Source: Bacteroidales bacterium
GTDB lineage: Bacteria > Bacteroidota > Bacteroidia > Bacteroidales > WCHB1-69
Assembly: GCA_017525505.1 (NCBI GenBank)
Contig: JAFXSR010000012.1
Coordinates: 234,502-298,501, forward strand
Reading direction: 5' to 3'
Length of the DNA stretch: 64,000 nt
A program made the translations under genes and the position numbers. The notes below the pieces were generated by a model that made no database searches, had not been told where the DNA came from, and saw nothing but the letters and a program-made list of their open reading frames with translations. Shown one piece after another: positions 3,626-21,306 of this stretch (position 1 is the first letter of the stretch; the number at the start of each line of letters is the position of its first letter).

Positions 3626-4231
3626 ATGGCAAGATATACAGGACCTAAAACCAAGATTGCAAGAAAGTTCCATGAACCCATTTATGGAGCTGACAAATAT
3701 TTTGAACACAAGAATTATCCTCCCGGACAGCACGGCCAGTCCAGAAAGCGTTCCAAATTGTCAGAGTACGGTATGCAGTTGCAAGAAAAGCAGAAAGCCA
3801 AATATACCTATGGTATTCTGGAACGTCAGTTTAGAAAATTGTTCCATGCCGCTGCCCGTAAGAAAGGTATCACCGGTCAGAACTTGATGAAACTTATCGA
3901 GTCACGTTTGGACAATGTGGTATATCGTCTGGGTATCGCTCCGAGCAGAGCCGCCGCGCGTCAGCTGGTGAGCCACAGACATATTCTGTTGAACGGTCAG
4001 ATCTGCAATATTCCTTCCGCACTGTTGGTGCCTGGCGATATCGTGGCAGTTCGCGAACGTTCAAAATCTCTCGAAGTGATTACCAACTCACTGAGTGGCA
4101 AGACCAACAGCTTCTCATGGTTGGAATGGGACGGCAATATGATGAGCGGTAAGTTCATGAACTATCCCGAGAGAGAGGAAATTCCCGAAACCATCAACGA
4201 GCAGGCTATTGTTGAATTGTATTCTAAATAA
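3626..4231 (+). CDS. rpsD: 30S ribosomal protein S4
   Basis: [26 protein letters not shown] and IVELYSK motifs. Confidence 0.99.
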
Positions 4232-4337
4232 TGATTATATAAACCGCCTCCACGTCTCCACGGTTTCACGTCTAAACGTTTATGCGGTTTGAAGGAATAC
4301 ACGAAGATAAGTAAATAACAATCAAAACAAAATAGAA

Positions 4338-5333
4338 ATGGCAATTTTAACGTTTCAAAAGCCCGACAAGGTCATCATGATCGAGGCCGACGATTTCCAT
4401 GGCAAGTTTGAGTTCCGTCCCTTGCAGCAGGGATATGGCATGACCATTGGAAACGCCTTGCGTCGCGTGCTGATTTCCTCACTCGAGGGCTATGCCATCA
4501 CTTCTGTCAAAATCGAAGGTGTGGTGCAAGAGTTTTCCTCAATCCAGGGTGTTATGGAGGATGTAACCGACATCATCCTTAACCTCAAGCAGATTCGCTT
4601 CAAAAACAAGATTGAGAACAATAACTCAGAGACTGCCAAGATCGTCATCTCCGGTCAGGACAAATTCACTGCCGGCGACATGAACCGTTTCCTGAACTAT
4701 TTCCAGGTGCTGAATCCGGAATTGCTCATTTGCCGTATGGAGCCTGAAGTGGTGCTGTCCATGGAAATCACCATCGACAAGGGACGCGGTTATGTTCCTG
4801 CTGAAGAGAACAAGTCACTGCACGAGGGCATCGGTGTCATCACCATCGATTCTATTCACACTCCCATCAAGAATGTGAAATACACTGTTGAGAATTACCG
4901 TGTGGAGCAGCGCACCGACTTCGAGAAGCTGGTGTTTGAGATCGATACCGATGGTTCTATCCATCCGAAGGAAGCTTTGAAAGAGGCTGCCAAAATATTG
5001 ATCCAGCACTTCGTACTGTTCTCTGACGAGAAGATTGCCATGGATTCGCCCGAACTGAGTGTTTCCAACGAAGAATTTGACGATGCCTCCAAGCTGACTC
5101 GCCAGATCCTGAAATCCAAGTTAGTGGATATGGATTTGTCTGTACGTGCCCTCAACTGCTTGAAGACCGCCGAGTTGGAGACCTTGGGAGACCTCGTTGC
5201 CATCCATAAGAGCGATTTGTTGAAATTCAGAAATTTCGGTAAGAAATCTTTGGCCGAATTGGAAGATTTGGTGAAGTCGAAAGGTCTGGAATTTGGAATG
5301 AATGTATCAAAGTATAAATTAGATAAGGATTAA
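4338..5333 (+). CDS. rpoA: DNA-directed RNA polymerase subunit alpha
   Basis: [32 protein letters not shown]. Confidence 0.99.
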
Positions 5334-5338
5334 GAATC

Positions 5339-5836
5339 ATGAGACACGCGAAAAGAATCAATCATTTAGGAAGAACAAGCGCGCACAGAGCTGCCATGTT
5401 GTCCAATATGGCTACCTCCTTGATCATGCATAAGCACATCCATACCACTTTGGCCAAAGCTAAGGAGTTGAAGAAGTTTGTGGAACCGCTGATTACGCGC
5501 AGCAAAAACGACACGACTCATTCAAGACGTATGGTTTTCGCTTCCCTGCACAACAAGTTTGCTGTCAGCGAATTGTTCAGAGAAGTCTCTCAGAAAGTGG
5601 CAGACCGCCCAGGTGGTTATACCCGTATTCTGAAGACTGGTTTCAGAAAAGGTGACAATGCCGAAATGTGCATCATCGAATTGGTGGATTACAACGAAAC
5701 CTACACCACTACCGAAACCAAGAAGAAAACTACTAGAACCAGACGTAGCAAAAAGTCAGCCCCCAAGGCTGAAGTTGAAGCTACCGCTGTTGAAACTGTT
5801 GAGGCACCTGCCACCGAGGCACCCGCCGCTGAGTAA
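5339..5836 (+). CDS. rplQ: 50S ribosomal protein L17
   Basis: [17 protein letters not shown] and [10 protein letters not shown]; Ala/Glu-rich tail. Confidence 0.99.
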
Positions 5837-5866
5837 GCTGAAGGTTTTTGAAATTTTGTTCAAAAT

Positions 5867-5903
5867 AAAACTCTCTTTGTTGTTCAACAAGAGAGTTTTT
5901 TTT
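5867..5903 (+). terminator. Intrinsic terminator after rplQ
   Basis: AAAACTCTCTTTGTTG-TT-CAACAAGAGAGTTTT hairpin followed by a T run. Confidence 0.8.
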
Positions 5904-5904
5904 A

Positions 5905-5912
5905 TATTTTTG
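5905..5912 (+). promoter_or_regulatory. Bacteroidota -7 promoter element for mscL
   Basis: TATTTTTG matches TAnnTTTG shortly upstream of the mscL start. Confidence 0.6.
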
Positions 5913-5966
5913 CCGATACATATTGAGAATGAATCAGATTTATTTACTAACTAAAATTTCAATACT

Positions 5967-6404
5967 ATGGGCTTTTTTAAAGAATTCAAGGAATTTGCCA
6001 TGAAAGGCAATGTTATGGACATGGCTATCGGTGTGATTATCGGTGGCGCTTTTGGCAAGATTGTCACTTCTTTGGTCAACGATGTGTTGATGCCTCTGAT
6101 TGGTGCTTTGATCGGGAATGTCGATTTTACTACCCTTTCAGCTACACTGAAACCTGCCGTCATGAATGGCGAGGAAGTGGTCAAAGAGGCTGTTACGCTG
6201 AATTACGGTAATTTCATCCAGACTACCGTCGATTTCCTCATCGTGGCTTTCTGTATCTTCTTGGTGATTAAACTTATCAACAAGGCTTCCAGAATGGTGA
6301 AAAAACCTGCCGAGGAAGAGGCACCCGCCGCTCCAGCAGAACCGGAACCCACCAGGGAAGAAATCTTGCTGACTGAAATCAGAGACTTGCTGAAACAGAA
6401 ATAA
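5967..6404 (+). CDS. mscL: Large-conductance mechanosensitive channel
   Basis: [27 protein letters not shown] and LLTEIRDLL. Confidence 0.98.
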
Positions 6405-6422
6405 GAGAAGCTTTGGCAATAG

Positions 6423-6456
6423 AAAAAGAGGGTTTTGTAGCCCTCTTTTTTATTTT
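6423..6456 (+). terminator. Intrinsic terminator after mscL
   Basis: AAAAAGAGGG-loop-CCCTCTTTTT. Confidence 0.8.
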
Positions 6457-6486
6457 AAAATCGCTTGTTAATCAAAATATTTGTGT

Positions 6487-6494
6487 TAATTTTG
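6487..6494 (+). promoter_or_regulatory. Bacteroidota -7 promoter element
   Basis: TAATTTTG upstream of the 6552 gene. Confidence 0.55.
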
Positions 6495-6551
6495 CACACT
6501 GTATTGTTGAAAACTTTATATACCTGTTATCGCTAAAAAAATCAAAATGTT

Positions 6552-7040
6552 ATGGTTAGAAAAATTGTCGCTTTTGTCGCTTTCAGTGTAATCAATGTTT
6601 CCTTATTCGCCCAATCGGTGGTGGTGCCCACTGGCGGTACAGCCAACGGCAGTGGAGGTACTGTTACCTATACAGTCGGACAGATTGCCGACCAGAAAGT
6701 TGAAGGTGATGGCCGTTACATTATTGAAGGGGTGCAACAACCCTACGAGATTCAGGTGGTTGGCATCAATAGCTATCCGGGTATCAACCTCTCTGCGGTA
6801 GTTTATCCCAACCCTACATTCGGCAGGGTGGTGTTGAGTATCAGGGATTATGAAATCCCTTCATCAGGATTGATGCTCCAGTTGTATGATCTGAATGGTA
6901 AACATTTGAAAACGATGGTCATCGTGGATCCGGATACAGAGCTTGATTTCTCCGGTTTAGCCGCCGCTACCTACCAGTTGCGAGTGGTGAATCAGAATCA
7001 ATTGCTGAAAACCTTCAAGGTGGTAAAGAACAGCCTATAA
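6552..7040 (+). CDS. Small T9SS type A sorting-domain protein
   Basis: Signal peptide, short Gly-rich segment (TGGTANGSGGTVTYTVGQ...GVQQP), then CTD motifs VYPNP, LYDLNGK, YQLRV and terminal FKVVK. Confidence 0.85.
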   Translation: MVRKIVAFVAFSVINVSLFAQSVVVPTGGTANGSGGTVTYTVGQIADQKVEGDGRYIIEGVQQPYEIQVVGINSYPGINLSAVVYPNPTFGRVVLSIRDYEIPSSGLMLQLYDLNGKHLKTMVIVDPDTELDFSGLAAATYQLRVVNQNQLLKTFKVVKNSL

Positions 7041-7135
7041 AATAGTTGGCAATTGCCTGTTGACCGTGGGGACGCATCACTAGCTTCCGGAAGATGTTTC
7101 GGTAAATAATCAATAATTATAAAGAAAAAAAACGT

Positions 7136-10100
7136 ATGAGAAAAGTTTTACTTTTGTTAGTGATGGTGTTTGCCGTGGCAATGCTGTGGGCACAAACACC
7201 GCAAAAAATGACCTATCAGGCGGTGGTTCGCAATGCGAACAATAGCTTGGTGGTCAATCAGAATGTAAGAGTGCGGATTTCGATTTTGCAGGGAAGCGAA
7301 AGCGGAAGCCCTGTCTATGTCGAGACTCACGAACCAAGCACCAATGCCAATGGCTTGATGACTGTGGAAGTAGGTGACGGCAGCGTTGTGTCAGGAGTTT
7401 TCACCGACATCAATTGGGCCAATGGACCGTATTATTTGAAATCTGAGATTGACCCTACGGGTGGATTCAACTACAACATTACTGGAGTTCAGGAGTTGTT
7501 GAGCGTGCCTTATGCCCTGTATGCCAGCCAAGCAGGCAATGTTCCTGCCTTTGCTGTTATTCCAACCGATACGGGTTATGTGATTTCTATTACCCAGGCT
7601 GGCAGCACTCCGCAGGCCTTCTTCTTGCGCCAAGGAACTCCCGGACCGCAAGGACCGCAGGGTGAACCCGGTAATAACGGCGCTGATGGTAACGGCATCG
7701 CCTCCATCGCCAAAACTGGCGAAGTGGGAAATGTTGACACCTATACTATCACTTTTACCAATGGCTCCACCAGCACCTTCACCGTCACCAATGGCGTGAA
7801 TGGTACTAATGGACAGAATGGCCAAAACGGTCAGGATGGTGTTTCGCCCATTGTGACTACGCTCACTGCTGGTGACAGCACAACGGTGACCATTACGGAT
7901 GCCAATGGACCTCACAGTTTTGTTCTCCATAACGGACAAAATGGTGTTGACGGAGCCGATGGTATAAACGGAACCAATGGTACAAATGGCCAGGATGGTT
8001 TCTCACCTATTGTGACGACCATTACTGCTGGTGACAGCACAACGGTGACCATCACGGATGCCAATGGACCTCACAGTTTTGTTCTCCGTAACGGACAAAA
8101 TGGTATAAACGGAACCAGCGGTACAAATGGCCAGGACGGTTTCTCACCCATTGTGATGACCACTACTGCTGGTGACAGCACAACGGTGACCATCACAGAT
8201 GCCAACGGGCCACATAGTTTTGTTCTCCACAACGGACAAAACGGAGTTGATGGAGCCGATGGTATAAACGGAACCAATGGCACCAATGGCCAGGACGGCT
8301 TCTCTCCCATTGTGACAACCTTTACCGCTGGTGACAGCACAACGGTGACCATCACGGATGCCAATGGTTCTCATAGTTTTGTTCTCCATAACGGACAAAA
8401 TGGTGTTGACGGAGCCGATGGTATAAACGGCACCAACGGTCAGGACGGTTTCTCACCCATTGTGACGACCACTACCGCTGGTGACAGCACAACGGTGACC
8501 ATCACGGATGCCAATGGACCTCACAGTTTTGTTCTCCATAACGGACAAAATGGTGTTGACGGAGTTGATGGTATAAACGGAACCAACGGTACAAATGGTA
8601 TTGATGGTAATGGTATTGTTTATATTGTCAAGACGGGTGCCGATTACTTGGTGGATACATATACTATCACATATACCAACGGTTCTACTAGTACTTTCAC
8701 GGTGACCAATGGTGCTCCAGGTGCGCAGGGTCCGCAAGGTGATCCTGGCACATCTGGCAGCAATGGTAATGATGGCAGGGGCATTGTCTCTATCGCAAAG
8801 ACTGGTGAAACCGGCAATGTGGATACTTACACCATCACCTATACCGATGCAACCACTTCCACATTCACCATCACCAATGGTGAAGACGGAGAGGATGGTG
8901 TCTCCCCAATTGTGACGGCGGCGGCATCCGGTTCCAATGTGATCATCACTGTAACCGATGGTACGGGTTCGCACGAATATGTGATTCCCACCACCAGCGG
9001 TGAGATGACCCAGTTGCCTGCCAACTGGACAGAGGAAAACAGCTCAAGCCCACAGTATATCATGAACAAGCCGACGCTGGCTCCGGTGGCCACTTCCGGT
9101 AGCTATAATGACTTGAGCAACAAACCGGAATTCCCCGCTGTTCCTACTGAAGTTAGTGCCTTTAATAACGATGCGGGCTACCTTACCTCTGATAGTCTTG
9201 CAGACCTGAACAACCAGCAAGTACAAATGCAGCATCTTATTGACAGTTTGTCGCAGGTGATAGATGATCTCCAGTTTGTATGCGGTGCCGAGGTGCAGGA
9301 TGTCGATGGTAATATATACCATACTGTGAAAATTGGCAATCAGTGCTGGATGAGGGAAAATATGAAGACGACCCGTTTCAGTGATGGTACAGCAATACAG
9401 CAGGGCGCAGGTGTTTCTTCTGTAAACGCCTATTGGTACTACCCCAATGGTAATTCTGCCAATAAGGAAGCATACGGCTTGCTATACAACTGGCCGGCGG
9501 TGATGAATAGTGCAGCATCCTCTGATGCCAATCCTTCTGGTGTGCAAGGACTCTGTCCTAAAGGCTGGCATGTGCCGAGCACTGCCGAATGGACACAACT
9601 TACCGAATATGTGGGTGGTCAAAGTCAGTACCTTTGTAACAGCATCTCAAACAATATTGCCAAATCATTGGCAGCTACCACAGCATGGATCAACCATGCC
9701 AACGAGTGTGCTGTTGGTAACGACGTGAGTGCGAACAATGCCACAGGTTTCTCTGCCATGCCTTCTGGCGCATACTATAGTGGCAATATGGATTTCAATA
9801 GAGGGTCTTATTTCTATTGTGCTACCGAAAGTAATGCCGGCAGTGCATACGTATATACCATAAGTCATTCTGAGGCAACCGTTTCTAACTATGCTTTTAA
9901 TAAAATTGGCGGATTTTCAGTCCGTTGTATGCGCAGCGCCGCTTCACAAGTGAGTATACCAAGTTCTGAAATCAATTTGCATGACTCGTTGGCTACCGTG
10001 GCATTTACGGGTAACTATGAAGATATGACCGGCACTCCGGAAATTCCCACTGTTCCCACGGTAATTTCAGCTTTCACCAACGACGCTGGATACATCACCA

Positions 10101-12910
10101 ACGATTCTATTCCTACTAATTTGAGCGCTTTCACCAATGATGCGAACTACATCACGATGGATTCCGTTTCTGCGTACGTGAACGATGCTACCCTCACCAT
10201 TCAGCAGAACGGAAGCGAGCTGGGAACCTTCACCGCCAACCAGAGTGCCAACCAGACCGTGAACATTACCACGCTTACTATCGATGATGTACAGGCCATG
10301 ATAAACAGTAGTCTTGGTACAGTGCGGCATCGGATAGACAGCATGCAGAATGCTCTCGACGACGTGTACTTCGTGTGCGGTACTTCTATGGTAAAGGATT
10401 ATGATGGCAACCAGTATGCTACCGTAAAAATTGGCAGTCAGTGCTGGCTGAAGGAGAATCTCCGTAGCACCCATTACAGCAACGGTGCCGAAGTGACAAA
10501 CTATTACCATGCGAATGATGACGAGGGTAACGATGAAACTTACGGGCTTTTGTACAACTGGAACACGACGGTGAATGGTGCCGCTGCCTCCGATGCCAAT
10601 CCGAGCGGCGTGCAGGGCATCTGCCCCACGGGATGGCATGTGCCCAGCCATGCTGAGTGGACACAAATGATGAATTATGTGAAAAGTCAAAGCATGTATC
10701 ACTGTGATGCGGATCCAGATAAAATAGGCAAGGCGTTGGCTGCCACCACGGGATGGGATTGGTCTGGTTCCGCTTGTCGGGTCGGTAATGATCTGAGCAG
10801 TAATAATGCTTCAGGTTTCAGTGCATTACCTGCAGGTAGGTATTTGAATCAAGTGTATAATAGTTTCGGGGAAGGGGCCATGTTTTGGACGAGTTCACTT
10901 GAATCCTCTCCGTCACGCAGAAGGATGTTCACCATACTTTATAATCAGGCGGATGTTCAGAATGATGAAGGTACACCTTATACCAATTGTTTTTCCGTCC
11001 GCTGTGTCCGCGACAATAGTTCTATGCTGGATCAGCTGGAAGGTCGATTCGAGGAGCAGCAGCATCTGACCGATAGCCTGCAAGACGCCCTTAACGATGT
11101 GGCATTTGTATGTGGTTATTCTAAGTTGAAAGACTATGATGGCAACCGGTACGCAACTGTGAAGATTGGCGTCCAGTGCTGGATGAAAGAAAATATCCGC
11201 AGCACGCATTACAGCGATGGAACAGAAGTGGGGGACTACTCTCATGTGAATGGCTCTTCCAGTAATGATGCCACCTTAGGCCTCCTATATTCATGGTCTG
11301 TCGCATTGAATGGCGGTAATTTCTCCAATACTAATCCGAGTGGTGTGCAGGGTATTTGCCCCACGGGCTGGCATGTGCCGAGTAAGGCCGAATGGGAGCA
11401 ACTTAAAAACTATTTGGGCAGCCATAGCCAATTTGTGTGTGGTGGTAATATTACGAAAATTGCCAAAGCATTGGCTGATACTATAGGGTGGAACGAAAGT
11501 GAAGATGCTTGTGATGCGGGTAACGATCAAGGCAGCAATAATGCTACCGGTTTTACTGCGCATTCTACAAATGGCACTTATGCCGATTTTTGGAGTTCTA
11601 CTAGTTATAGTGAAGATGCGGTATATGAATATTACCTCAGTGCTTATGATGAGAGATTAATGTACGGTGGTTCGGGAGCTAGCAACTATTCTGTACGTTG
11701 TGTGAAAGATCAACTCTCTGTGGATGATCGATTGATGGATCTCCAGGATCAGCTGGATAGCCTGAATAATTATATGACAGAGCAACTAGACAGCTTGAAC
11801 AATAGTATGAACAATCAGTTAGACAGCCTGAATAACCAGTTGACAGAGCAACAGGAACTGTTGGATCTGATGCTTCCATGCTATATGGTACCTTCTTCTG
11901 GTTCTAAGACATTAATTATTCCAGAAGTAACACATGTGGATGTATATGACAAGGGAGGTCCTAATGGCGATTACCTTGATAATTGGAATGGATCGCTTAC
12001 TCTTGTCTCTCGTCCTAATAGTATGTTCAAGATTACAGGAACGTATGCAACAGAGTTAAATTACGATTATTTGTATATATATAATGGTGCCACCGTTCAG
12101 GATAATAATCTCATCATTTCCTATTCTGGTGCCGGTTCTATCTCCGAGGCAATATATACCACTGGCGACACCGTCACCATACGGTTTAGGTCTGACGGAG
12201 GTATCACAGGTGCCGGTTTCTCCTTGAGTATTGATGTGGTAGAGAAAAGCTGTGGTGGAAGTGTCAAGGCAACGGATGTTCAAGGCAACCGCTACAGCAC
12301 CGTGGCAATTGGCGAGCAATGCTGGTTGCAAGAAAACTTGCGCTCCACTAAATACGCTAACGGTGAACAAGTCACTCTGGGTGCAGGCGAAGGCTATCGA
12401 TGCTTCTATCCGAATAATGATGCTGGCAATGTCGCCACATACGGTTACTTGTATAACCGGGCAGCAGTGATGCATGGAAGCGTCTCCTCTTCGGCTAATC
12501 CGAGTGGCGTCAGAGGTCTTTGTCCCGCAGGATGGCATGTTCCGAGCGATGTCGAGTGGACTCAGCTTACCGATTATGTGAGGAATCAGAGCGGATTTTT
12601 GTGCAACAGTGATGAAAATAATATCGCCAAGGCTCTGTCCTCTGCTACTGGGTGGGCGTCCAGTCCTGCCGAATGTAATGTGGGTAACGATATGGGCAGC
12701 AACAATGTTACGGGTTTCAATGCGCTTCCGGCGGGTTCATATTCCAGCAGTGCCAGCGAGTTTGGTCAGTACGCTAATTTCTGGACTGCTACTGAGTCTA
12801 ATGTCAGCGATTATGCGAAGCTCCGTTACATTTATAACGCTGACTCCGAAGTGAGTAACTTCGAAGAGGATAAGGGCTATGCTTATTCTGTGCGTTGTGT
12901 TCGCGATTAG
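7136..12910 (+). CDS. Large exported fibre-like protein with collagen-like repeats, four Fib_succ_major (FISUMP) domains and a CUB-like domain
   Basis: Signal peptide; G-X-Y repeats; four copies of DxxGNxYxTVxIGxQCW...GxCPxGWHVPS...SVRC; CUB-like TELNYDYLYIYNG...IRFRSDGGITGAGF. Confidence 0.85.
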   Translation: MRKVLLLLVMVFAVAMLWAQTPQKMTYQAVVRNANNSLVVNQNVRVRISILQGSESGSPVYVETHEPSTNANGLMTVEVGDGSVVSGVFTDINWANGPYYLKSEIDPTGGFNYNITGVQELLSVPYALYASQAGNVPAFAVIPTDTGYVISITQAGSTPQAFFLRQGTPGPQGPQGEPGNNGADGNGIASIAKTGEVGNVDTYTITFTNGSTSTFTVTNGVNGTNGQNGQNGQDGVSPIVTTLTAGDSTTVTITDANGPHSFVLHNGQNGVDGADGINGTNGTNGQDGFSPIVTTITAGDSTTVTITDANGPHSFVLRNGQNGINGTSGTNGQDGFSPIVMTTTAGDSTTVTITDANGPHSFVLHNGQNGVDGADGINGTNGTNGQDGFSPIVTTFTAGDSTTVTITDANGSHSFVLHNGQNGVDGADGINGTNGQDGFSPIVTTTTAGDSTTVTITDANGPHSFVLHNGQNGVDGVDGINGTNGTNGIDGNGIVYIVKTGADYLVDTYTITYTNGSTSTFTVTNGAPGAQGPQGDPGTSGSNGNDGRGIVSIAKTGETGNVDTYTITYTDATTSTFTITNGEDGEDGVSPIVTAAASGSNVIITVTDGTGSHEYVIPTTSGEMTQLPANWTEENSSSPQYIMNKPTLAPVATSGSYNDLSNKPEFPAVPTEVSAFNNDAGYLTSDSLADLNNQQVQMQHLIDSLSQVIDDLQFVCGAEVQDVDGNIYHTVKIGNQCWMRENMKTTRFSDGTAIQQGAGVSSVNAYWYYPNGNSANKEAYGLLYNWPAVMNSAASSDANPSGVQGLCPKGWHVPSTAEWTQLTEYVGGQSQYLCNSISNNIAKSLAATTAWINHANECAVGNDVSANNATGFSAMPSGAYYSGNMDFNRGSYFYCATESNAGSAYVYTISHSEATVSNYAFNKIGGFSVRCMRSAASQVSIPSSEINLHDSLATVAFTGNYEDMTGTPEIPTVPTVISAFTNDAGYITNDSIPTNLSAFTNDANYITMDSVSAYVNDATLTIQQNGSELGTFTANQSANQTVNITTLTIDDVQAMINSSLGTVRHRIDSMQNALDDVYFVCGTSMVKDYDGNQYATVKIGSQCWLKENLRSTHYSNGAEVTNYYHANDDEGNDETYGLLYNWNTTVNGAAASDANPSGVQGICPTGWHVPSHAEWTQMMNYVKSQSMYHCDADPDKIGKALAATTGWDWSGSACRVGNDLSSNNASGFSALPAGRYLNQVYNSFGEGAMFWTSSLESSPSRRRMFTILYNQADVQNDEGTPYTNCFSVRCVRDNSSMLDQLEGRFEEQQHLTDSLQDALNDVAFVCGYSKLKDYDGNRYATVKIGVQCWMKENIRSTHYSDGTEVGDYSHVNGSSSNDATLGLLYSWSVALNGGNFSNTNPSGVQGICPTGWHVPSKAEWEQLKNYLGSHSQFVCGGNITKIAKALADTIGWNESEDACDAGNDQGSNNATGFTAHSTNGTYADFWSSTSYSEDAVYEYYLSAYDERLMYGGSGASNYSVRCVKDQLSVDDRLMDLQDQLDSLNNYMTEQLDSLNNSMNNQLDSLNNQLTEQQELLDLMLPCYMVPSSGSKTLIIPEVTHVDVYDKGGPNGDYLDNWNGSLTLVSRPNSMFKITGTYATELNYDYLYIYNGATVQDNNLIISYSGAGSISEAIYTTGDTVTIRFRSDGGITGAGFSLSIDVVEKSCGGSVKATDVQGNRYSTVAIGEQCWLQENLRSTKYANGEQVTLGAGEGYRCFYPNNDAGNVATYGYLYNRAAVMHGSVSSSANPSGVRGLCPAGWHVPSDVEWTQLTDYVRNQSGFLCNSDENNIAKALSSATGWASSPAECNVGNDMGSNNVTGFNALPAGSYSSSASEFGQYANFWTATESNVSDYAKLRYIYNADSEVSNFEEDKGYAYSVRCVRD
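7829..8597 (+). repeat. Five intragenic tandem repeats of 141-159 bp
   Basis: Units start at about 7829, 7988, 8129, 8288 and 8438; each encodes GQDGxSPIVxTxTAGDSTTVTITDANGxHSFVLxNGQNG plus a variable number of G-X-Y triplets. Confidence 0.9.
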
Positions 12911-12936
12911 ACAGTGAATATTGGATAATGAATAGT

Positions 12937-12967
12937 TAAGGGAGGGTCGCAAGGCTCTCCCTTTTTT
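12937..12967 (+). terminator. Intrinsic terminator
   Basis: AAGGGAGGGTC-GCAA-GGCTCTCCCTT followed by a T run. Confidence 0.85.
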
Positions 12968-13216
12968 AGTGGTCAGTGGTCAGGTGTTAGGTGATGTCCA
13001 TTGTCGGGCGTGTCTAGCATCTCGTTTTGAAGTGCCTGATGATATCCTGGAACACTTCCATTCCGTTTTGTATGACTTCTTTTGGTGACAAAAATACGAA
13101 AATATTCCGAATAATTTACTATTAATTATCAAAAGAATTAAATGTTTATTGCTAACTATTTGGTTTGCAGGGTTGAAAAATTTCTTCAAATCAGTAAAAA
13201 TATAAAACACCTGTAG

Positions 13217-13224
13217 TATCTTTG
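13217..13224 (+). promoter_or_regulatory. Bacteroidota -7 promoter element
   Basis: TATCTTTG upstream of the 13252 ORF. Confidence 0.6.
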
Positions 13225-13251
13225 CAAACAATAAAAACAAATGATTGAATT

Positions 13252-13662
13252 ATGAAAAGCAAAGAGTTAAAAGATCCGATTGCAGAGGCCCGCAGATATG
13301 TGGCCAATGCGGAAAATGTTATCCAAAATGCCAATTATGACCCGGAGCTGAAGATCTATACGGACGGGAAATACATCAAAATGGCGGGGGACACCTTGTG
13401 GAAAGGCTGTCTGATCGCGTTGGATGCGGTGCTGAACATACGCAAGGGCAAAGGTCGTCCCTCCATTGAGAAGTACAAGGAGGCGGCAGGGGAACGCGAT
13501 CGCAAACTGCTGGCTGCGATAGTGGCAGGTTACGATACCATGCATTTGTACATGGGGTATGATGGCACAAAGAATAAGAAAACTTGTGATTCAGGTTTCG
13601 AGTGTGCCAATGCGATCATCGATCGCTGTGCTATGCTATTGCCTAAAGAGGTGTTGGCATGA
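13252..13662 (+). CDS. DUF5618-like small helical protein
   Basis: EARRYVANA...KYIKMAGDTLWKGCLIALD...YDTMHLYMGYDG resembles the DUF5618 family as recalled; has its own promoter. Confidence 0.6.
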   Translation: MKSKELKDPIAEARRYVANAENVIQNANYDPELKIYTDGKYIKMAGDTLWKGCLIALDAVLNIRKGKGRPSIEKYKEAAGERDRKLLAAIVAGYDTMHLYMGYDGTKNKKTCDSGFECANAIIDRCAMLLPKEVLA

Positions 13663-13669
13663 AATAATA

Positions 13670-13784
13670 CGATTGCGGGATGCAATCGCTTACATGTTGC
13701 CATCTGCGTCTCGCAGATGGTGTCATTATTTTTGTGCCAGTGAGAAGCGGTTGCATACATCATCGAACCTGCGAGGACGCAGGT
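13670..13784. repeat. Cluster of REP-like palindromes
   Basis: Hairpins CGATTGC/GCAATCG (13670-13688), GCCATCTGCG/CGCAGATGGT (13699-13721) and ACCTGCG/CGCAGGT (13767-13784). Confidence 0.65.
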
Positions 13785-13793
13785 GCCTACATC

Positions 13794-13823
13794 AAAAAAA
13801 GCCCGCAAACGCGGGCGTTTTTG
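13794..13823. terminator. Bidirectional intrinsic terminator
   Basis: AAAAAAA-GCCCGC-AAAC-GCGGGC-GTTTTT between convergent genes. Confidence 0.8.
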
Positions 13824-13860
13824 CAATATAGAAGGGGCGAACAATCATTCGCCCATCCGA

Positions 13861-14412
13861 TTACAGAGTGTGGTAAGGTTTCAGCAAACCTTTGCCGATT
13901 TCCACTGCTTCCTCGTTCTTGGGAATGAGGTGGTGGTGGCGTTCGGGCAGAGATTTTTCCAAACCTTTGTGCAGCATTTCGGGGGTTACCAGGGGTTTCA
14001 CCTTGAGGAAACCGCCCAGCACAATCATGTTGAACAGTTTGGAAATACCCAGTTCGCTGGCTTTGTCGGCAGCGGCCACCTGATAGATGTTGATGTCTTT
14101 GCGGGTGGGGTGGTGGGTGATACCGTTCGGGTCATAAATCAACAGACCACCGGGTTTTACTGAGCTTTCGAACTTGTCCATGGACTGCTGGTTCAGGATG
14201 ATGGCAGTGTCGAACTGGTTCAGATAAGGAGAGCAGATACGCTCGTCGCTCAAAATCACCGTTACGTTAGAAGTACCACCACGCATTTCAGGTCCGTAGG
14301 AGGGAAGCCAGCTGACTTCCTTGTCTTGCATAATGCCGGCGTAAGCCAAGATTTTACCCATTGAGAGTACACCTTGACCGCCGAAGCCTGCTATAATAAT
14401 TTCTTCTGTCAT
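13861..14412 (-). CDS. 2-oxoacid:ferredoxin oxidoreductase gamma subunit
   Basis: AGFGGQGVLSMG and PSYGPEMRGGTS. Confidence 0.95.
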   Translation of the reverse strand: MTEEIIIAGFGGQGVLSMGKILAYAGIMQDKEVSWLPSYGPEMRGGTSNVTVILSDERICSPYLNQFDTAIILNQQSMDKFESSVKPGGLLIYDPNGITHHPTRKDINIYQVAAADKASELGISKLFNMIVLGGFLKVKPLVTPEMLHKGLEKSLPERHHHLIPKNEEAVEIGKGLLKPYHTL

Positions 14413-14433
14413 TGCTTTGTGAATTTAAGGTTA

Positions 14434-15276
14434 TTATTTTTTTCTCAATGAATAAAGGGTTTCATTGGGTTGGTCGAAGGTGGCGATGCGCTCGATGAAC
14501 TTGGGATCGAATTTGCCATCCACTTTCATATCGCCCAGCGGGAAGTATTTCAAGGTATTTTCTTCCATCCACTTGTTGGCCTGAACAGCGGTCATCTTCC
14601 AGCCGGAGTTACAGTTGGAGGTAACTTCCACGAAGGAAACGCCCTTGTTGAGTTTCTGGTTCTCGAAGGCCTGGCGGATAGCTTTTTTGCACTTGCGGGC
14701 CAAAGCGGGAGTATAAACGGCCTGACGGGTCACGTAGTAAGTGCCGGGCAGCTGGGCCAATGCTTCGGTCAGACGCATGGTGTGTCCCATGATTTCGGGG
14801 TCACGGCCGTAGGGGCAGGTCACGGTTTCCATACCCTCGAGGGTGGTGGGAGCCATCTGGCCGCCGGTCATACCGTAGATACCGTTGTTGATGAAAATCA
14901 TGGTGATGTTTTCGCCACGGTTGCAGGCGTGCATAACTTCGGCGCAGCCGATAGAGGCCAAGTCACCGTCGCCCTGGTATGAGAACACGAAGGTTTCGGG
15001 GCGCAAGCGCTTGATAGCGGAGGCGCAGGCGGGAGCGCGTCCGTGGGCGGCTTCCACGAAGTCAACATCAAAATAATTGTAAGCCAGAACAGAGCAGCCT
15101 ACCGGTGAGATACCGATGACATTGTCCTGAATGCCCATTTCCTCGATTACCTCGGCGATGATTCTGTGAACAGTGCCGTGTCCGCAGCCTGGGCAGTAGT
15201 GCATGGTGGCATCCTTCAAAACAGAGGTGCGCTTGTACACTAAGTTTTCGGGTTTGATAATATCTTCTCTTGTCAT
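14434..15276 (-). CDS. 2-oxoacid:ferredoxin oxidoreductase beta (TPP-binding) subunit
   Basis: YCPGCGHG, GDGD and NNGIYGMTGGQ. Confidence 0.95.
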   Translation of the reverse strand: MTREDIIKPENLVYKRTSVLKDATMHYCPGCGHGTVHRIIAEVIEEMGIQDNVIGISPVGCSVLAYNYFDVDFVEAAHGRAPACASAIKRLRPETFVFSYQGDGDLASIGCAEVMHACNRGENITMIFINNGIYGMTGGQMAPTTLEGMETVTCPYGRDPEIMGHTMRLTEALAQLPGTYYVTRQAVYTPALARKCKKAIRQAFENQKLNKGVSFVEVTSNCNSGWKMTAVQANKWMEENTLKYFPLGDMKVDGKFDPKFIERIATFDQPNETLYSLRKK

Positions 15277-15295
15277 AATTTCAATGCTAATTAAA

Positions 15296-16375
15296 TTATT
15301 TTACCATTTTTTTCAAAGCTTCGAAAATCTCAACCGGGGTTGGGATGACACCGCCGTAGCGGCCATAATGCTCAACGGGAACGTTGCAATTCACTGCCAG
15401 TTTCACGTCTTCGATCATCTGACCGGCGTTCATTTCAACGCTGAGGATTTTCTTCATGCGGCCACCGATTTCAGCCACAGCTTTGGTCGGGAAGGGCCAC
15501 AGGGTGATAGGACGCACCAAACCGACTTTGATGCCTTCGGCGCGTGCCAGTTCCATAGCTTTCATACAGATACGCGCGGCGGAACCGTAAGCTACGAACA
15601 GGTATTCAGCGTCGTCGCACTGGATAGCTTCGTGACGGGCGTCTTCTTCTTCGCATTTTCTGTATTTGGCCTGGATTCTCTCGTTGATAGCCTCTTGTTT
15701 CAGAGCTTCGAGTTCAAGAGAAGTGACAATAGTGCTCTTGCCGCCTGCGCGATGACCGGTAGCGGCCCATGGGCAATGTTCTTCGATATATTCGTTGGTC
15801 CAGCGTGGTTTGTAGTCGTCAACCATGACTTTTTCCATCACCTGACCGATCACACCGTCAGAGAGGATAGCGGCGGGGTTTCTGTATTTGAAAGCCAAGT
15901 CGAAACCGAGTTCCACGAAGTCGTACATTTCCTGAACAGAAGCGGGAGCCAAGGTGATCAGTCTGTAGTCACCGTGACCGCCACCCTTGGTGGTCTGGAA
16001 ATAGTCGGACTGTGAAGGCTGGATGGTACCGAGGCCTGGGCCGCCACGAACAACGTTGACACACAGTGCGGGCAGCTCAGCGCCAGCAATGTATGACAGG
16101 CCTTCCTGCATCAGGGAGAAACCAGGTGAGGAAGATGAGGTCATAACGCGTTTACCAGTGGATGCGCCGGCGTAAACCATGTTGATAGAGGCCAGCTCGC
16201 TTTCGGCTTGAAGCACAACCATGCCGGTTGTCAGATATGGTCTTTCAGCCATCAGGTGTTCGAGAACCTCACTCTGCGGAGTGATAGGATATCCGAAATA
16301 ACCGTCGCAGCCCATGCGGATGGCTGCTTCAGCAATGGCTTGATTACCCTTCATTAATTTTAATTCTTTTGCCAT
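15296..16375 (-). CDS. 2-oxoacid:ferredoxin oxidoreductase alpha subunit (VorB-like)
   Basis: GYPITPQSE, QAESE, SSSPGFSLMQE, RGGPGLG. Confidence 0.95.
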   Translation of the reverse strand: MAKELKLMKGNQAIAEAAIRMGCDGYFGYPITPQSEVLEHLMAERPYLTTGMVVLQAESELASINMVYAGASTGKRVMTSSSSPGFSLMQEGLSYIAGAELPALCVNVVRGGPGLGTIQPSQSDYFQTTKGGGHGDYRLITLAPASVQEMYDFVELGFDLAFKYRNPAAILSDGVIGQVMEKVMVDDYKPRWTNEYIEEHCPWAATGHRAGGKSTIVTSLELEALKQEAINERIQAKYRKCEEEDARHEAIQCDDAEYLFVAYGSAARICMKAMELARAEGIKVGLVRPITLWPFPTKAVAEIGGRMKKILSVEMNAGQMIEDVKLAVNCNVPVEHYGRYGGVIPTPVEIFEALKKMVK

Positions 16376-16428
16376 TTTGTAATTTGTTTAGTTGTTAATT
16401 GTTTTGTTTTTCTTGCTTCTGACCGCGG

Positions 16429-16656
16429 TTACTCTTTGGCGCGGTAAACTTCGATAACGCCGTCGGGGCAGATGACCGCACAGTTGGCGCAGCCAATACA
16501 CGCGTCGGCATTGACAACCTCAAGGTAGTTGTAACCTTTTGCATTTACTTTCTTTGAAAGTGCAATACATGCGGGGTTCTGTGGACATCCTGTGATGCAC
16601 ACTTCGCAACCTTTACACTTTTCAGTGTTGATGACTAATGCTCCTTTAAATGCCAT
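16429..16656 (-). CDS. 2[4Fe-4S] ferredoxin (oxidoreductase delta subunit)
   Basis: Two CxxCxxCxxxCP motifs; first gene of the operon. Confidence 0.93.
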   Translation of the reverse strand: MAFKGALVINTEKCKGCEVCITGCPQNPACIALSKKVNAKGYNYLEVVNADACIGCANCAVICPDGVIEVYRAKE

Positions 16657-16787
16657 AATTTTAATTTTTTATGTGTTAGTAATTTTGGTTAAAATGTCCT
16701 TTTTTATAAGTTCAAAAAAAGCATACGAAAATACGAAAAATTTCCTTACCTACAGCGTTTTTCAGAATATTTTTTTTCCTTGCCTTT

Positions 16788-17996
16788 TCAGAGCTCTGCT
16801 TTTGTTTTGTTTTCTTTGGTCTCCAATTGGAGTTTCACATCATTCAAAACATTCATAAAGTTGATAAATGCTTGATAGGGAGATGGATATACGTCGAAAT
16901 TCCGTCGTACGCTGTCATGGGCAAACCACTTGGTGCTCATGAAGTTGAAGTGGTCGGCGGCCTGCAACTGCAGCCAGCTTTCCTTGGCGACCTTGTTTTT
17001 AGACTTCTTATACAGGCTTTCCAATTTGAATAATTGGTTGAAAGCTTCCTGCTGCAGGTCGTTGCCCAGCCATTCGGCGGTGTCTTTTTCATCACCTGAA
17101 TAGGAGATGGGCCAGGGGGCATGCATGGTGGAGCAGGGAACCTTCATGGCGGTGACTTCCTTCGGGGTTATGAATTTGTATTTTTCGTTTTCAGCTAACT
17201 GTGAGAACAGTGCCTTGAAGAATTCAAAGATGCCCGTGTCGGCGGTATGGTATTCGCCAATGGTCTCATAATCGAAATAAAGATTGATGAATGGTGCGTC
17301 ATCGGGAATCTTGTTGAGGTTGTTGATGTATTTCTCAGCGGTCAGCCCCATGCCATCCCAGTCTTTCTCCTCGAAGCGCAGGGTGATGTCGTCGCACAGT
17401 CGGTAGCTTCTGAGCATCAGTTTCAGGTCGGTCTGGAAGGGGTTGCAGTACAGATAGCATGGACTCTTCCATCCCAGAATGTGACGGGCGCCTTCGGTCA
17501 GCACCACATCGTAACCGGCTTCATGTAGCCATTCGCCGATTTCGTCGGAATAGATGATTTCGGTGTTGCAGAACGAGGTGGGGCGCACTTTGAACACTTC
17601 CTTCAGCAGTTTCTCCTGCAGCTTCACTTGCTCCATGAAACAGGTTTTGTTATGCAGTGAGGCAAGGCTGTGGGTGTAGGTGTTGCCTGTGATTTCCACA
17701 TTTTTGGTGGCAATCAGTTGCTTGAAACTGTCAATTACTTCAGGACAGTACTGCTGGAACAAATGAATGGAGCTTCCCGCGATACTGAAACTTACCTTGA
17801 TCTTGTCCCCGTACTTGGCCATCAGTTCTTGCAGCATGGCGTTGGCGGGCAAATAACACCGTTCGGCCAGACGGTTGGCCAGATAGCTGTTCTGGTATTC
17901 ATCAAAATATTCATGATGTTGGTTGATGTCGAAGAATCTGTAGGTTCTCAAACGGAACGGCTGACTGATATGAAAATGGAAGCAAATATTGTGCAT
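16788..17996 (-). CDS. Glycoside hydrolase family 57 (alpha-amylase-like)
   Basis: HISQP, NTEIIYSD and DYETIGE regions typical of GH57. Confidence 0.9.
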   Translation of the reverse strand: MHNICFHFHISQPFRLRTYRFFDINQHHEYFDEYQNSYLANRLAERCYLPANAMLQELMAKYGDKIKVSFSIAGSSIHLFQQYCPEVIDSFKQLIATKNVEITGNTYTHSLASLHNKTCFMEQVKLQEKLLKEVFKVRPTSFCNTEIIYSDEIGEWLHEAGYDVVLTEGARHILGWKSPCYLYCNPFQTDLKLMLRSYRLCDDITLRFEEKDWDGMGLTAEKYINNLNKIPDDAPFINLYFDYETIGEYHTADTGIFEFFKALFSQLAENEKYKFITPKEVTAMKVPCSTMHAPWPISYSGDEKDTAEWLGNDLQQEAFNQLFKLESLYKKSKNKVAKESWLQLQAADHFNFMSTKWFAHDSVRRNFDVYPSPYQAFINFMNVLNDVKLQLETKENKTKAEL

Positions 17997-18021
17997 GGTG
18001 TTGTATTTGAAAGCGTTATTG

Positions 18022-19305
18022 TTATCTATTGATTACTTTGTCGTATATGCCTTTGAGCTTGCGGGCCACATTTTCCCATTTCAGGTTGTTGACCTCCTCT
18101 TTGCCTTTGCTGATAAAGAGTTTGGACAGGGCAGGGTAGTGGAGCAGGCCGTAGATGGCGTCGGCGGTGGCGTCAATGTCCCAGAAATCGACTTTGATGG
18201 CGTATTGCAGCACTTCGGCCACACCCGACTGTTTGGAGATGACCACTGGCACGTTGGCGCGCATGGCTTCCAGTGGTGAGATGCCGAAAGGCTCTGAGAT
18301 GGAAGGCATCACATATACATCGCTCATGCCGAACATTCGGTCGATGTCGTCACCGCGCAAGAATCCGGTGAAATGGAAACGGTCGGCAATGCCCAACTCG
18401 GCCACACGCTCAATGATGCGCGGCATCATGTCGCCGTCACCGGCCAGGACAAAGCGGACATCGGGGTCTTTCTCCAGTACTTTCCGTGCCGTCTCTACAA
18501 AATAGTCGGGTCCTTTCTGGAAAGTGACACGCCCCAGGAAAGTGACAATCTTCTCTTTGACGTTTTTGTTGCGCTCAACGACTTTGTCGGTGGGAATGAC
18601 CGCGTTGTGCAAGGTCACCACCTTGTCGGCGGGGATATGGTATTTGTCGATGACGATTTGTCGGGTAAGGTTGCTGACCGCGCAAACCATGTCGGCTTCG
18701 CTCATGCCGTATTGTTCAAGTCCATATACCGCATTGTTGATGTTTTGCTCGCCGGAGCGGTCGTACTCGGTGGCGTGGATGTGCACCACCAAAGGTTTTC
18801 CGCTTACTTTTTTGGCGGCGATACCGGCTTTGTAGGTCAGCCAGTCGTGGGCATGTATAATGTCGAACTGCTCGTTGCGGGCAATTTCGGCGGCCACCTC
18901 CGCATAGCGGTCCACCTCCTGCATGAGGTTGCTGCCATAGCGGCCGGAGAACTCGTATCTGCGCTTGCCACCGTATGTGTCGCCTGAAAGCATGCCGCTG
19001 TCCAATTGGTTGATGACATTGTAGTAATCGTCCAAACCGACGTAAGGAATCAGTCTTGAGTTGACTTGGATATACGTGGTGTCACCGCCTTGTTGGAAAA
19101 AAGCGGAGAAGCGGGGGTCCACCTCCACGTCGCTGGCGTTGATGATCTTGATCAGACTCTGGTCCTCGTCGCCAGAGGCTTTGGGCATGACGAAAGCAAC
19201 ATCCACCCCGTTGACCGCCAGTCCCTTGGTTAGGCCGTAGCAGGCTGTGCCCAAACCACCGGCGATGTGCGGGGGAAACTCCCATCCAAACATTAAAACT
19301 TTCAT
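18022..19305 (-). CDS. Glycosyltransferase family 4
   Basis: GWEFPPHIAGGLG, HAHDW, EPFGISPLEA. Confidence 0.92.
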   Translation of the reverse strand: MKVLMFGWEFPPHIAGGLGTACYGLTKGLAVNGVDVAFVMPKASGDEDQSLIKIINASDVEVDPRFSAFFQQGGDTTYIQVNSRLIPYVGLDDYYNVINQLDSGMLSGDTYGGKRRYEFSGRYGSNLMQEVDRYAEVAAEIARNEQFDIIHAHDWLTYKAGIAAKKVSGKPLVVHIHATEYDRSGEQNINNAVYGLEQYGMSEADMVCAVSNLTRQIVIDKYHIPADKVVTLHNAVIPTDKVVERNKNVKEKIVTFLGRVTFQKGPDYFVETARKVLEKDPDVRFVLAGDGDMMPRIIERVAELGIADRFHFTGFLRGDDIDRMFGMSDVYVMPSISEPFGISPLEAMRANVPVVISKQSGVAEVLQYAIKVDFWDIDATADAIYGLLHYPALSKLFISKGKEEVNNLKWENVARKLKGIYDKVINR

Positions 19306-19359
19306 CAGTATCTTTTTTTTATTTTTGTAATCGAATTGAATGTTGCAGTTGGACTGCTT

Positions 19360-21306
19360 TTATTTTTTGGCTGTATCGATTTTCCATTTCAGATACAGCA
19401 GGGCGGCTACGCTCCATGCTTGGGAGAAACAGCCGTTGGGTTTGTATGGCGGGTCTCCGTCGGTGATTTCGCAAATTGTAGAGATGCCGTAATCTTTCAT
19501 GCAATTGTCGAAGTTGTAGAAAATCTTTTCCAAGACAGAAACGGCATTCTGGCCGTAAACACTGAGCATACCGTCGCAGAAGGGGGCCAGCAGCCAAGGC
19601 CAGCAGCAGCCCTGATGGTAGGCGGCGTCGCGCTCGGCTTGGTTGCCCTGATAGTGGCCCTTGTAGTCGGGGTCGTTGGGCGACAGCGTTCGGATGCCCT
19701 TCTCTGTCAGCAGCTCCTCGCAGGTCTTCTTGAGGACTAACTGCTTGATTTTCTCGCTGATAGGTGCATAAGGCAGGGACACTGCGATCATCATGTTCGG
19801 GCGCACCTGGAAGTTCTTGTAGTCGCCGTTGACATAGTCGGCAAGGTAGCCGATCTCCTTTGACCAGAAAGTGGCCTTGAAGGTGTCGGGGAAAGTCTTG
19901 GCCAGTGGCTCCCATGCTTCCACGAAGGCATGGTCTTTGGCCAGTCGCGCCATCTCGAGGCTGAATTGGATGGCGTTGTACCATAAGGCGTTGATTTCCA
20001 CTGCACAGCCGGTACGCGGGGTGACGGGCACACCGTTCACCACGGCATCCATCCAGGTGAGGGCTACATGCTCATTGCCGGCATAAATCAGACCGTTGTC
20101 TAGCATCCTGATATTGTAGAGGGAACCATTTTTGTATGCGTTCAGGATGGACTGCATCACGGAACCATACTCTTTCCAGATTTTCTTTTCGGTATGTGTG
20201 TATGATGCATATTGCTGCAGGGCGCGGAAGAACCACAGGGGGGCATCCACGGAGTTGTAGGCGGCCTGGTCACCACTGCCAATGTTCGGAAACAGACCGT
20301 CTTTCATCTCCGACAGCATGTCGTCGATAATGGTCTTGCATACTTCTGGTTTGTTGACCACCGACAACGTCAGTCCCGGCACCGCGATGAACGTGTCGCG
20401 ACCCCAGCGGCCGAACCAGGGATAGCCGGCAATGACCTGTGTTTTGCCGTTGCGCTCGATGATGAATTGCTCGGCGGCGTTCTTCAGGCAGTTCAGATAG
20501 CTGTTGCGGCTGCGGTGTCCATCCAAGGTGCTGTTGAAAATATTGGCAATTTCTTTAGGGTCAATCGGGCTGGTGCCGATGGTGAAATATAGCTCCTTGC
20601 TCTTGACCGGCACGTTGATGCGACCGAGTTTCAGCAGGTCCTCGTGGCCATCGTAGCCCCGCTTAATTTCTTCATCGTATTCGATGTTGTAGAACCAGTC
20701 GGGTGCGTGCTGGTAATCGATGGTTTCGGAACTTTGCATGTAGATAGGGGTGTATCTGTCGTAAAGACAATATTTTACACCATTCTGAACTTCTTCGTAG
20801 CCAGTGTTGGCCTGATCGTTTTTATGTGTCAGCTTATGAATCTGACGGAAAGCCAGCAAAGGCTGGAACTGGAAGGAAGCGGATTCGAAATCATCGAGGA
20901 TGGTGTATTTGATGATCAGTCGCTCCTCAGTGTCGGAGAACAGGATTTCCTTGGTGAAATTGAAATGGCCGACCCGGAAATGATAAACGGGTATGATGTC
21001 GGCGTTGAATTTCTGCAGATATTTGTTGCCTTTGGGATCGAAGATGCCTCCCTTGTACTGGTGCATGCCGAGATGGAACTCCATGTCGTCGATAATGATG
21101 CTTTCGTTCAATGTGGACACCAGCACATGGCGTTCGCCATCGACATTTTCCTGCGGCAATATGAATAATCCGTGGTATTTCCGGGTATTGAGACCGAGCA
21201 GGGTGGTGGAGGCGAATGCTCCGGTGCGGCTGCAGCGGACAATTTCCTTTTTCTTCGAGAAGGGGATATTGACTAATTCGGTTTTGTCAAATTCTATATA
21301 GCTCAT
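19360..21306 (-). CDS. Amylo-alpha-1,6-glucosidase (glycogen debranching enzyme)
   Basis: TRKYHGL, AGYPWFGRWGRDTFI, TWMDA, SQAWSVA. Confidence 0.93.
   Translation of the reverse strand: MSYIEFDKTELVNIPFSKKKEIVRCSRTGAFASTTLLGLNTRKYHGLFILPQENVDGERHVLVSTLNESIIIDDMEFHLGMHQYKGGIFDPKGNKYLQKFNADIIPVYHFRVGHFNFTKEILFSDTEERLIIKYTILDDFESASFQFQPLLAFRQIHKLTHKNDQANTGYEEVQNGVKYCLYDRYTPIYMQSSETIDYQHAPDWFYNIEYDEEIKRGYDGHEDLLKLGRINVPVKSKELYFTIGTSPIDPKEIANIFNSTLDGHRSRNSYLNCLKNAAEQFIIERNGKTQVIAGYPWFGRWGRDTFIAVPGLTLSVVNKPEVCKTIIDDMLSEMKDGLFPNIGSGDQAAYNSVDAPLWFFRALQQYASYTHTEKKIWKEYGSVMQSILNAYKNGSLYNIRMLDNGLIYAGNEHVALTWMDAVVNGVPVTPRTGCAVEINALWYNAIQFSLEMARLAKDHAFVEAWEPLAKTFPDTFKATFWSKEIGYLADYVNGDYKNFQVRPNMMIAVSLPYAPISEKIKQLVLKKTCEELLTEKGIRTLSPNDPDYKGHYQGNQAERDAAYHQGCCWPWLLAPFCDGMLSVYGQNAVSVLEKIFYNFDNCMKDYGISTICEITDGDPPYKPNGCFSQAWSVAALLYLKWKIDTAKK

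Follow-up and report, generated by a model that had tools for sequence, protein, structure and literature searches.

A minimal type IX secretion cargo encoded beside a giant fibre without a sorting domain: a candidate two-gene surface module in Bacteroidales

We analysed a 64,000-nucleotide stretch of DNA from a Bacteroidales bacterium (assembly GCA_017525505.1, contig JAFXSR010000012.1, positions 234,502 to 298,501; hereafter the window), in which a gene for a small protein with a type IX secretion system (T9SS) sorting domain directly precedes the gene for a giant fibre-like protein without one. A reading of the letters alone, referred to here as the original prediction, had proposed that the small protein binds the N-terminal domain of the fibre (N-domain) and supplies secretion or anchoring in trans. 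Listing of open reading frames (ORFs) confirmed both genes on the forward strand, and the features located at the locus are as follows, in window coordinates.

6487..6494, + strand: promoter-like element TAATTTTG, matching TAnnTTTG, 57 nt upstream of the start codon
6552..7040, + strand: small-protein gene (P0001), 162 aa; ORF call
6552..6611, + strand: putative signal peptide, aa 1-20; hydrophobic helix at aa 2-18 in the AlphaFold2 (AF2) model, invariant Q21
6612..6800, + strand: N-segment, aa 21-83, proposed docking module; GG.A.G.GG..TYTVGQ ... EGVQQPYEI
6801..7031, + strand: type A T9SS C-terminal sorting domain, aa 84-160; PF18962, TIGR04183 and AF2 beta-sandwich
7041..7135, no strand: intergenic gap of 95 nt; no terminator-like site listed by the terminator scan
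7136..12910, + strand: fibre gene (P0002), 1924 aa, without a T9SS C-terminal domain (CTD); ORF call and Pfam/NCBIfam scans
7193..7543, + strand: fibre N-domain, aa 20-136, proposed docking site; beta-sandwich related to the N-terminal domain of Bdellovibrio mosaic adhesive trimer (MAT) fibres
7634..8782, + strand: aa 167-549, in which collagen G-X-Y runs and collagen-flanked surface repeats take turns; PF01391, PF19079
9023..9295, + strand: stalk segment with phage tail-fibre-like motifs, aa 630-720; tblastn
9269..9937, + strand: FISUMP head 1, about aa 712-934, boundary approximate; motifs at aa 725 (start) and 934 (end)
10367..11014, + strand: FISUMP head 2, about aa 1078-1293; best TIGR02145 stretch at aa 1085-1293
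11102..11710, + strand: FISUMP head 3, about aa 1323-1525; Pfam and motifs, with an Lcl_C overlap at aa 1387-1524
11966..12241, + strand: CUB-like domain, aa 1611-1702, weakly matched; PF00431 at 24 bits (cut-off 21.4), PF23062 at 17.6 bits
12302..12907, + strand: FISUMP head 4, aa 1723-1924, with which the protein ends; best PF09603 stretch at aa 1723-1923
12938..12963, + strand: terminator-like hairpin of 11 pairs (6 G-C) with a T run after it

Judged by its sequence, the small protein has the make-up of a type A T9SS cargo reduced to a minimum. The signal-peptide-like N-terminus and the T9SS CTD of the original prediction were both recovered, and the N-segment between them proved to be about 63 residues long, not about 50. 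The sorting domain scored above cut-off against Por_Secre_tail in Pfam (PF18962, aa 84-153, 28.1 bits against a cut-off of 27) and against TIGR04183 in NCBIfam (38.1 bits against 23), and its AF2 model has beta-strands over aa 78-159, a predicted Ig-like beta-sandwich with a predicted local distance difference test score (pLDDT) of about 86-94. Q21 is invariant in alignments of 17 and of 62 small-protein sequences. The mature N-termini of the small protein and of the fibre both start with an invariant Gln, in accord with the Q-rule for signal peptidase I substrates in Bacteroidetes (PMC5837995, PMC10653852). The N-segment is the best-conserved part of the small protein, with a mean column identity of 70% over 62 sequences; despite this, it reached a pLDDT of only 42-50 when folded alone. 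We collected 329 homologues of the small protein, mostly 161-163 aa long, from Bacteroidales metagenome bins, and those with a source name are labelled T9SS type A sorting domain-containing protein, from Bacteroidales metagenome-assembled genomes. At E ≤ 1e-3 the N-segment family spans 3823 representative clusters. Por_Secre_tail was found on 118 of the 146 N-segment representatives scanned, which were drawn from the 150 best, and the minimal form thus prevails in the family; 28 lack the tail, and 24 of these have a length below 150 aa. A search of this genome limited to SprA identified SprA_N at 549 bits in a 2455-aa ORF on contig C41.

The fibre gave no Por_Secre_tail or type B tail match at E ≤ 0.1 and no match to a barrel family in Pfam or NCBIfam, and because its signal peptide has no Cys it has no lipobox, in agreement with the prediction on all three points. 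Searches with Pfam, NCBIfam and motifs also located the remaining parts that had been described, namely the N-domain, the G-X-Y runs, the phage-fibre-like motifs and the four Fib_succ_major (FISUMP) heads; the motifs quoted for them lie at aa 23, 123, 648 and 673. In the AF2 model of the N-domain, strands extend over aa 25-121 with a pLDDT of 86-95. Eight G-X-Y runs occupy aa 167-549, with 46 bits to PF01391 and 64.8 bits, in four stretches, to PF19079, the collagen-flanked surface repeat (CFSR). The heads scored 427 bits with PF09603 and 403.6 bits with TIGR02145, in four stretches each and above the cut-offs. Coiled-coil-like linkers were identified by eye only. In tblastn, the stalk segment at aa 630-720 matched 27 phage records, with E-values from 3e-8 to 4e-4 among the 8 listed, and the listed matches are mostly annotated as tail fibre protein. 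A diversity-generating retroelement acting on a FISUMP head was considered and rejected, as the genome (87.8% complete) contains no RVT_1 match; the template repeat was not searched for.

The association between the two genes is widespread. Of 80 related loci fetched with a profile of the small-protein family, 67 contain an ORF starting with the fibre N-domain 5-711 nt downstream on the same strand, giving 68 pairs with a median gap of 77 nt. A second, independent sample was drawn evenly and comprised 201 Bacteroidales genomes from 168 genera; in it, the N-segment was matched in 91 genomes (84 genera) and the N-domain in 131, and 90 of the 91 N-segment-positive genomes were N-domain-positive as well. 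A listed N-domain match lies directly downstream of 67 of the 87 N-segment matches at E ≤ 1e-9, and a small gene stands upstream of at least 61 of the best 75 N-domain matches, against at least 6 of the next 75. These adjacency counts are lower bounds, drawn from the best 150 of 544 N-domain matches, and they do not represent independent events because the sampled genomes are related to one another. The two domains nonetheless co-occur as neighbours in both samples, as the original prediction had anticipated. SprA_N was present in 195 of the 201 genomes. The sole fibre-positive genome without it (G167) is 72% complete, which makes the T9SS-negative genomes uninformative as a natural test.

Comparison of the partner fibres points to the base, and not the tip, as the part associated with the small gene. 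Among 45 complete partner fibres, none has Por_Secre_tail in the last 300 aa; 41 end in FISUMP, 2 in Peptidase_S74 (both from a cultured Saccharicrinis), 1 in Lcl_C and 1 in Flg_new. Since the heads vary and the base is kept, the N-domain is the conserved feature beside the small gene. The N-domain of the window's fibre matched NF053851 (Bdello_MAT_N) over positions 2-77 of the 162 in the profile, at 38.8 bits where the cut-off is 60, and 62 of 62 aligned N-domains matched the same family at E ≤ 0.01, with a best value of 3.2e-12. At the level of profile comparison this indicates homology of part of the N-domain, and not that the fibre belongs to the Bdellovibrio subfamily. In Bdellovibrio bacteriovorus, MAT fibres are surface-located, and their N-terminal domain is described as having no structural homologue in the PDB and as presumably binding some surface element whose identity was left for later work (Caulton et al. 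2024, PMC10769870). Our own fold search with the N-domain returned only generic beta-sandwiches from the PDB and BFVD, with a TM-score on the query of at most 0.37. A phage origin of the fibre base is unsupported, as tblastn of the N-domain against phages gave no match at E ≤ 1e-3.

To the extent that the MAT system is described in the available text of that paper, the two families have in common a conserved N-terminal base, a long stalk and swappable C-terminal tips, the existence of S74-chaperone and non-S74 subtypes, and a base without a specific structural homologue in the PDB (PMC10769870). They differ in that the host here is a gut Bacteroidales and not a predator, the stalk is built of collagen and CFSR repeats, and FISUMP domains form the tips. 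The fibre gene here is preceded by the gene for a T9SS-tagged partner, whereas the MAT paper, in its available text, names no partner; nor does that text contain a word beginning with 'bacteroid' (PMC10769870). Among the related loci, the cultured isolate Saccharicrinis sp. FJH54 (L088) carries two small-gene/fibre pairs, at 4703-8315 and 9947-12781, with fibres that end in a Peptidase_S74 chaperone domain, as in the S74 subfamily of Bdellovibrio MAT fibres. This isolate is a possible experimental model. In the complete chromosome OY781043.1 (L071), four fibre genes stand in tandem behind a single small gene within 9959-20098, and every one of the four has its own N-domain, an arrangement which suggests that one partner may serve several fibres.

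The relationship between the N-segment and the N-domain was examined by modelling three copies of fibre aa 20-185 together with one copy of small-protein aa 21-90. An interface was predicted, as the original prediction would have it, with ipSAE values of 0.63, 0.70 and 0.70 (median 0.70), while the highest value among 3 controls was 0.00; of 157 solved complexes 116 attain the mark used for ipSAE, and of 215 mismatched pairs 2 do so. At least 62% of the contacts are common to the runs. The three N-domain copies were modelled at a pLDDT of 82-84 and the N-segment at 49 or above. A single N-segment contacts all three N-domains through residues 22-47, 50 and 56-61, which meet fibre residues 25-36, 70-79, 101-107 and 114-126, and residues 36-41 of the small protein pair with the first strand of the N-domain (fibre residues 27-34). 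The model thus supports predicted binding between the N-segment and the N-domain. Hand counts of conserved positions gave no clear enrichment at the interface, either in the N-domain (19 of 35 interface positions against 30 of 82 elsewhere) or in the N-segment (12 of 33 against 13 of 30).

We propose that the small protein and the CTD-less fibre may constitute a two-gene surface-fibre module. The fibre would be a trimer, as its collagen repeats lead us to infer, with lectin-like FISUMP heads and a MAT-like base that has no export or anchoring signal of its own. The N-segment would form a beta-hairpin that enters the N-domain trimer at its base and contacts all three protomers, and the sorting domain would carry the small protein through the T9SS. 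There, the T9SS would swap the sorting domain for a covalent link to anionic lipopolysaccharide (LPS), and the fibre would be left tethered to the outer surface via a peptide of about 40-60 residues. Covalent attachment to anionic LPS is the fate described for type A cargo (PMC9143113). We lean, with moderate confidence, towards a cognate, probably binding pair that gives T9SS-dependent tethering of the fibre, in which trimerisation, actual binding, LPS anchoring and the surface location of the fibre are steps that we infer. What stands of the original interpretation is a functional, probably physical pair, on the strength of adjacency and the complex model. An encounter of the partners already in the periplasm, with joint passage over the outer membrane and the fibre exported piggy-back in trans, would be plausible, and the lack of any other visible export signal in the fibre counts for joint export. 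In its most far-reaching form the proposal is tentative and, we think, rather doubtful: the T9SS would export a trimer of about 5800 residues that has no sorting domain, a peptide of about 60 residues joined to a type A CTD would clamp its base in the periplasm, take it through the SprA translocon and leave it bound to LPS, and the N-segment would be the surface element for MAT-type bases and a portable adaptor for lectin-like and dockerin-like modules.

Several observations weigh against this proposal. The complex job departs from the calibration of the tool in its three copies and custom alignments, and the N-segment's own fold is uncertain in the complex (pLDDT about 50). Distance matrices revealed no co-evolution signal beyond co-inheritance: the correlation with the N-domain was 0.69 for the N-segment and 0.67 for the sorting domain, with partial correlations of 0.39 and 0.34. 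Thirteen of the 80 small genes have no fibre downstream. Two of these lie at contig ends; two others (L018, L024) are close homologues and yet lack a fibre, and the remainder belong to a more divergent subtype, some of them near FISUMP fragments. Conversely, 41 of the 131 N-domain-positive genomes have no N-segment match. Of the 6 N-domain genes in the present genome, only 1 has a CTD-bearing small gene before it. The paralogue closest to the window's fibre, a 3029-aa protein with a 51% identical N-domain (C9:15541-24631, minus strand), has no small gene upstream, and its neighbouring gene is divergent.

Sorting domains are also absent from a number of proteins that carry an N-segment or a similar start. 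Two secreted proteins of 438 and 418 aa (C65:28264-29580, L011:150-1463; and C46:48934-50190, L014:184-1437), 55% identical to each other, are each encoded directly upstream of another N-domain fibre gene in this genome. Both begin with a divergent stretch resembling the N-segment, end in a FISUMP head and lack a sorting domain; hhalign of the starts gave one a probability of 85.8% (E 5.3e-6) and the second a probability of 7.4% (E 0.0048). Going by sequence, the two are a second type of partner for N-domain fibres. P0143 likewise joins an N-segment to a FISUMP head without a sorting domain. Among 17 longer N-segment proteins fetched from weaker matches, with frames of about 280 aa or more, 9 (280-320 aa) have no Pfam family, and the two of the nine that were translated (P0273 and P0274, about 300 aa) have a dockerin-like end by eye. 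N-segments without a sorting domain imply that delivery of a T9SS tag is not the only role of this segment.

Bdellovibrio is not known to have a T9SS. MAT fibres, with a related N-domain, are nevertheless surface-located there (PMC10769870), which counts against joint export as a general rule and for a scheme in which the small protein alone passes through the T9SS to LPS, and the fibre crosses by another route and then docks. The binding step would be the same as in the proposal above, and only the export step would differ. The fibre-positive genomes without a detectable small protein, and the fibre genes here that pair with N-segment-like proteins lacking a sorting domain, are in keeping with such separate export. 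Set against them, the fibre has no lipobox, barrel or type B tail to act as an alternative export signal, and the N-segment, which is not folded on its own in the model, would be surface-exposed before docking; we consider separate export unlikely.

A different role for the N-segment would be that of an assembly cap, which nucleates or registers the N-domain trimer in the periplasm, with the attached module secondary and anchoring not its main role. The contact of a single N-segment with three N-domain copies in the model would suit this, as would its fusion to several unrelated modules (sorting domain, FISUMP, dockerin-like) and the single small gene before up to four tandem fibre genes in L071. 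A purely periplasmic factor would have no need, however, of the sorting domain that most of the representatives scanned have kept, and collagen and coiled-coil parts could register a trimer unaided, in line with what is established for collagen repeats. We attach little weight to this explanation. Equally improbable in our view is that the genes are independent neighbours, co-inherited and co-transcribed for regulation, whose products do not bind each other. The lone small genes, the low pLDDT of the N-segment in the complex and a distance correlation for which co-inheritance accounts would all be expected of such neighbours, but the adjacency persists across at least 84 genera despite swapped heads, with only the N-domain kept, and the ipSAE of the complex stands far apart from that of the controls. 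With regard to transcription, contigs from a sheep-gut RNA run match the small gene at 6559-6709 and 6749-6898 (0-1 differences), and a contig from the same run matches the fibre gene at 7364-7792 with 16 differences. No contig from the public RNA libraries spans the gap at 7041-7135 between the two genes, a result that must be set on the debit side of the proposed module; as such libraries can contain DNA, these contigs say nothing on co-transcription.

Comparison with other systems places the pair among components of known kinds. An ordinary type A T9SS cargo such as P. gingivalis RgpB, for which CTD structures are available (PMC11285876), resembles the small protein in having an N-terminal signal-peptide-like stretch, a passenger and a type A sorting domain, in a genome with SprA. 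The passenger here is only about 63 residues long and is not predicted to fold alone, and the large functional protein is encoded separately, without a sorting domain. Type B CTD proteins and their PorP/SprF-like anchors are similar in that a T9SS-related adhesin is anchored at the surface via a dedicated partner whose gene lies close by (Gorasia et al. 2022, PMC9143113). In that system, as described, a type B sorting domain is part of the adhesin itself and an outer-membrane barrel acts as partner (PMC9143113), whereas the fibre of the present pair is without a sorting domain, its partner is a type A cargo of miniature size, and no PorP-like gene is present among the neighbour genes. Co-translocation of hydrogenases by the twin-arginine translocation (Tat) system and peroxisomal piggy-back import offer a precedent for a folded, signal-less partner carried by a tagged subunit (PMC9251779). 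That review covers hitchhiker export in Tat and peroxisomes and not in the T9SS. For the pair described here the parallel is a hypothesis only. Weak matches to Legionella Lcl and streptococcal Scl (NF046116, NF038329) reflect a G-X-Y triple-helix stalk with a globular head; the matches are below the cut-offs and driven by the collagen repeats, and Lcl and Scl have anchoring signals of their own (LPXTG for Scl, according to the NCBIfam model names).

Each of the parts is familiar from elsewhere (the type A T9SS cargo, the MAT-like fibre, FISUMP, collagen repeats), and what is new is the division of labour over two genes. In the literature outside subscription-only papers, we found no description of this pair or of T9SS export or anchoring by a tag supplied in trans, and T9SS cargo is described as requiring its own C-terminal domain (PMC11285876). 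If the proposal is correct, genome-based prediction of T9SS substrates would have to take in a widespread class of large adhesin-like fibres tagged through a separate mini-protein, and surface fibres so far hidden in rumen and gut Bacteroidales would come to light. The pair is also a concrete candidate for what holds a conserved MAT-type base on the cell, a question left by the authors of the MAT study (PMC10769870), and the N-segment and N-domain could serve as a two-part display tool on Bacteroidota surfaces.

The N-segment also occurs in other settings. Por_Secre_tail forms the end of 8 of the 17 longer N-segment proteins, and a fibre gene lies directly downstream of 3 of the 17. P0263, one of the four of the 150 best representatives that were scanned apart from the 146, is a 2690-aa protein with the N-segment at its start and a TIGR04183 tail. 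The N-segment is found with DUF6591 in P0148; it is duplicated before the sorting domain in P0208, and duplicated in P0223, which has a dockerin-like end by eye.

The signals that flank the module were recovered in part. The original prediction placed the pair between one promoter element and one terminator, and the hairpin at 12938-12963 agrees with the terminator. TAnnTTTG is the Bacteroidetes -7 promoter consensus, but it occurs 56 times across the window against 48.9 expected, and TAATTTTG is weak evidence for a promoter because the motif is no commoner than chance. A further hairpin after mscL, at about 6427-6446, was spotted by eye and is absent from the list of the terminator scan. The module lies directly 3' of a ribosomal-protein/rpoA cluster (S4, RpoA, L17) and mscL, at window positions 3626-6404; these surroundings are of housekeeping character, and no mobile-element genes were seen nearby. 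Downstream of the fibre is a DUF5618 gene, at 13252-13662. A paralogue of the small gene elsewhere in the genome (C13:14196-14608, 66% identical), whose 3' context is cut by the contig end, has a DUF5618 gene just upstream of it.

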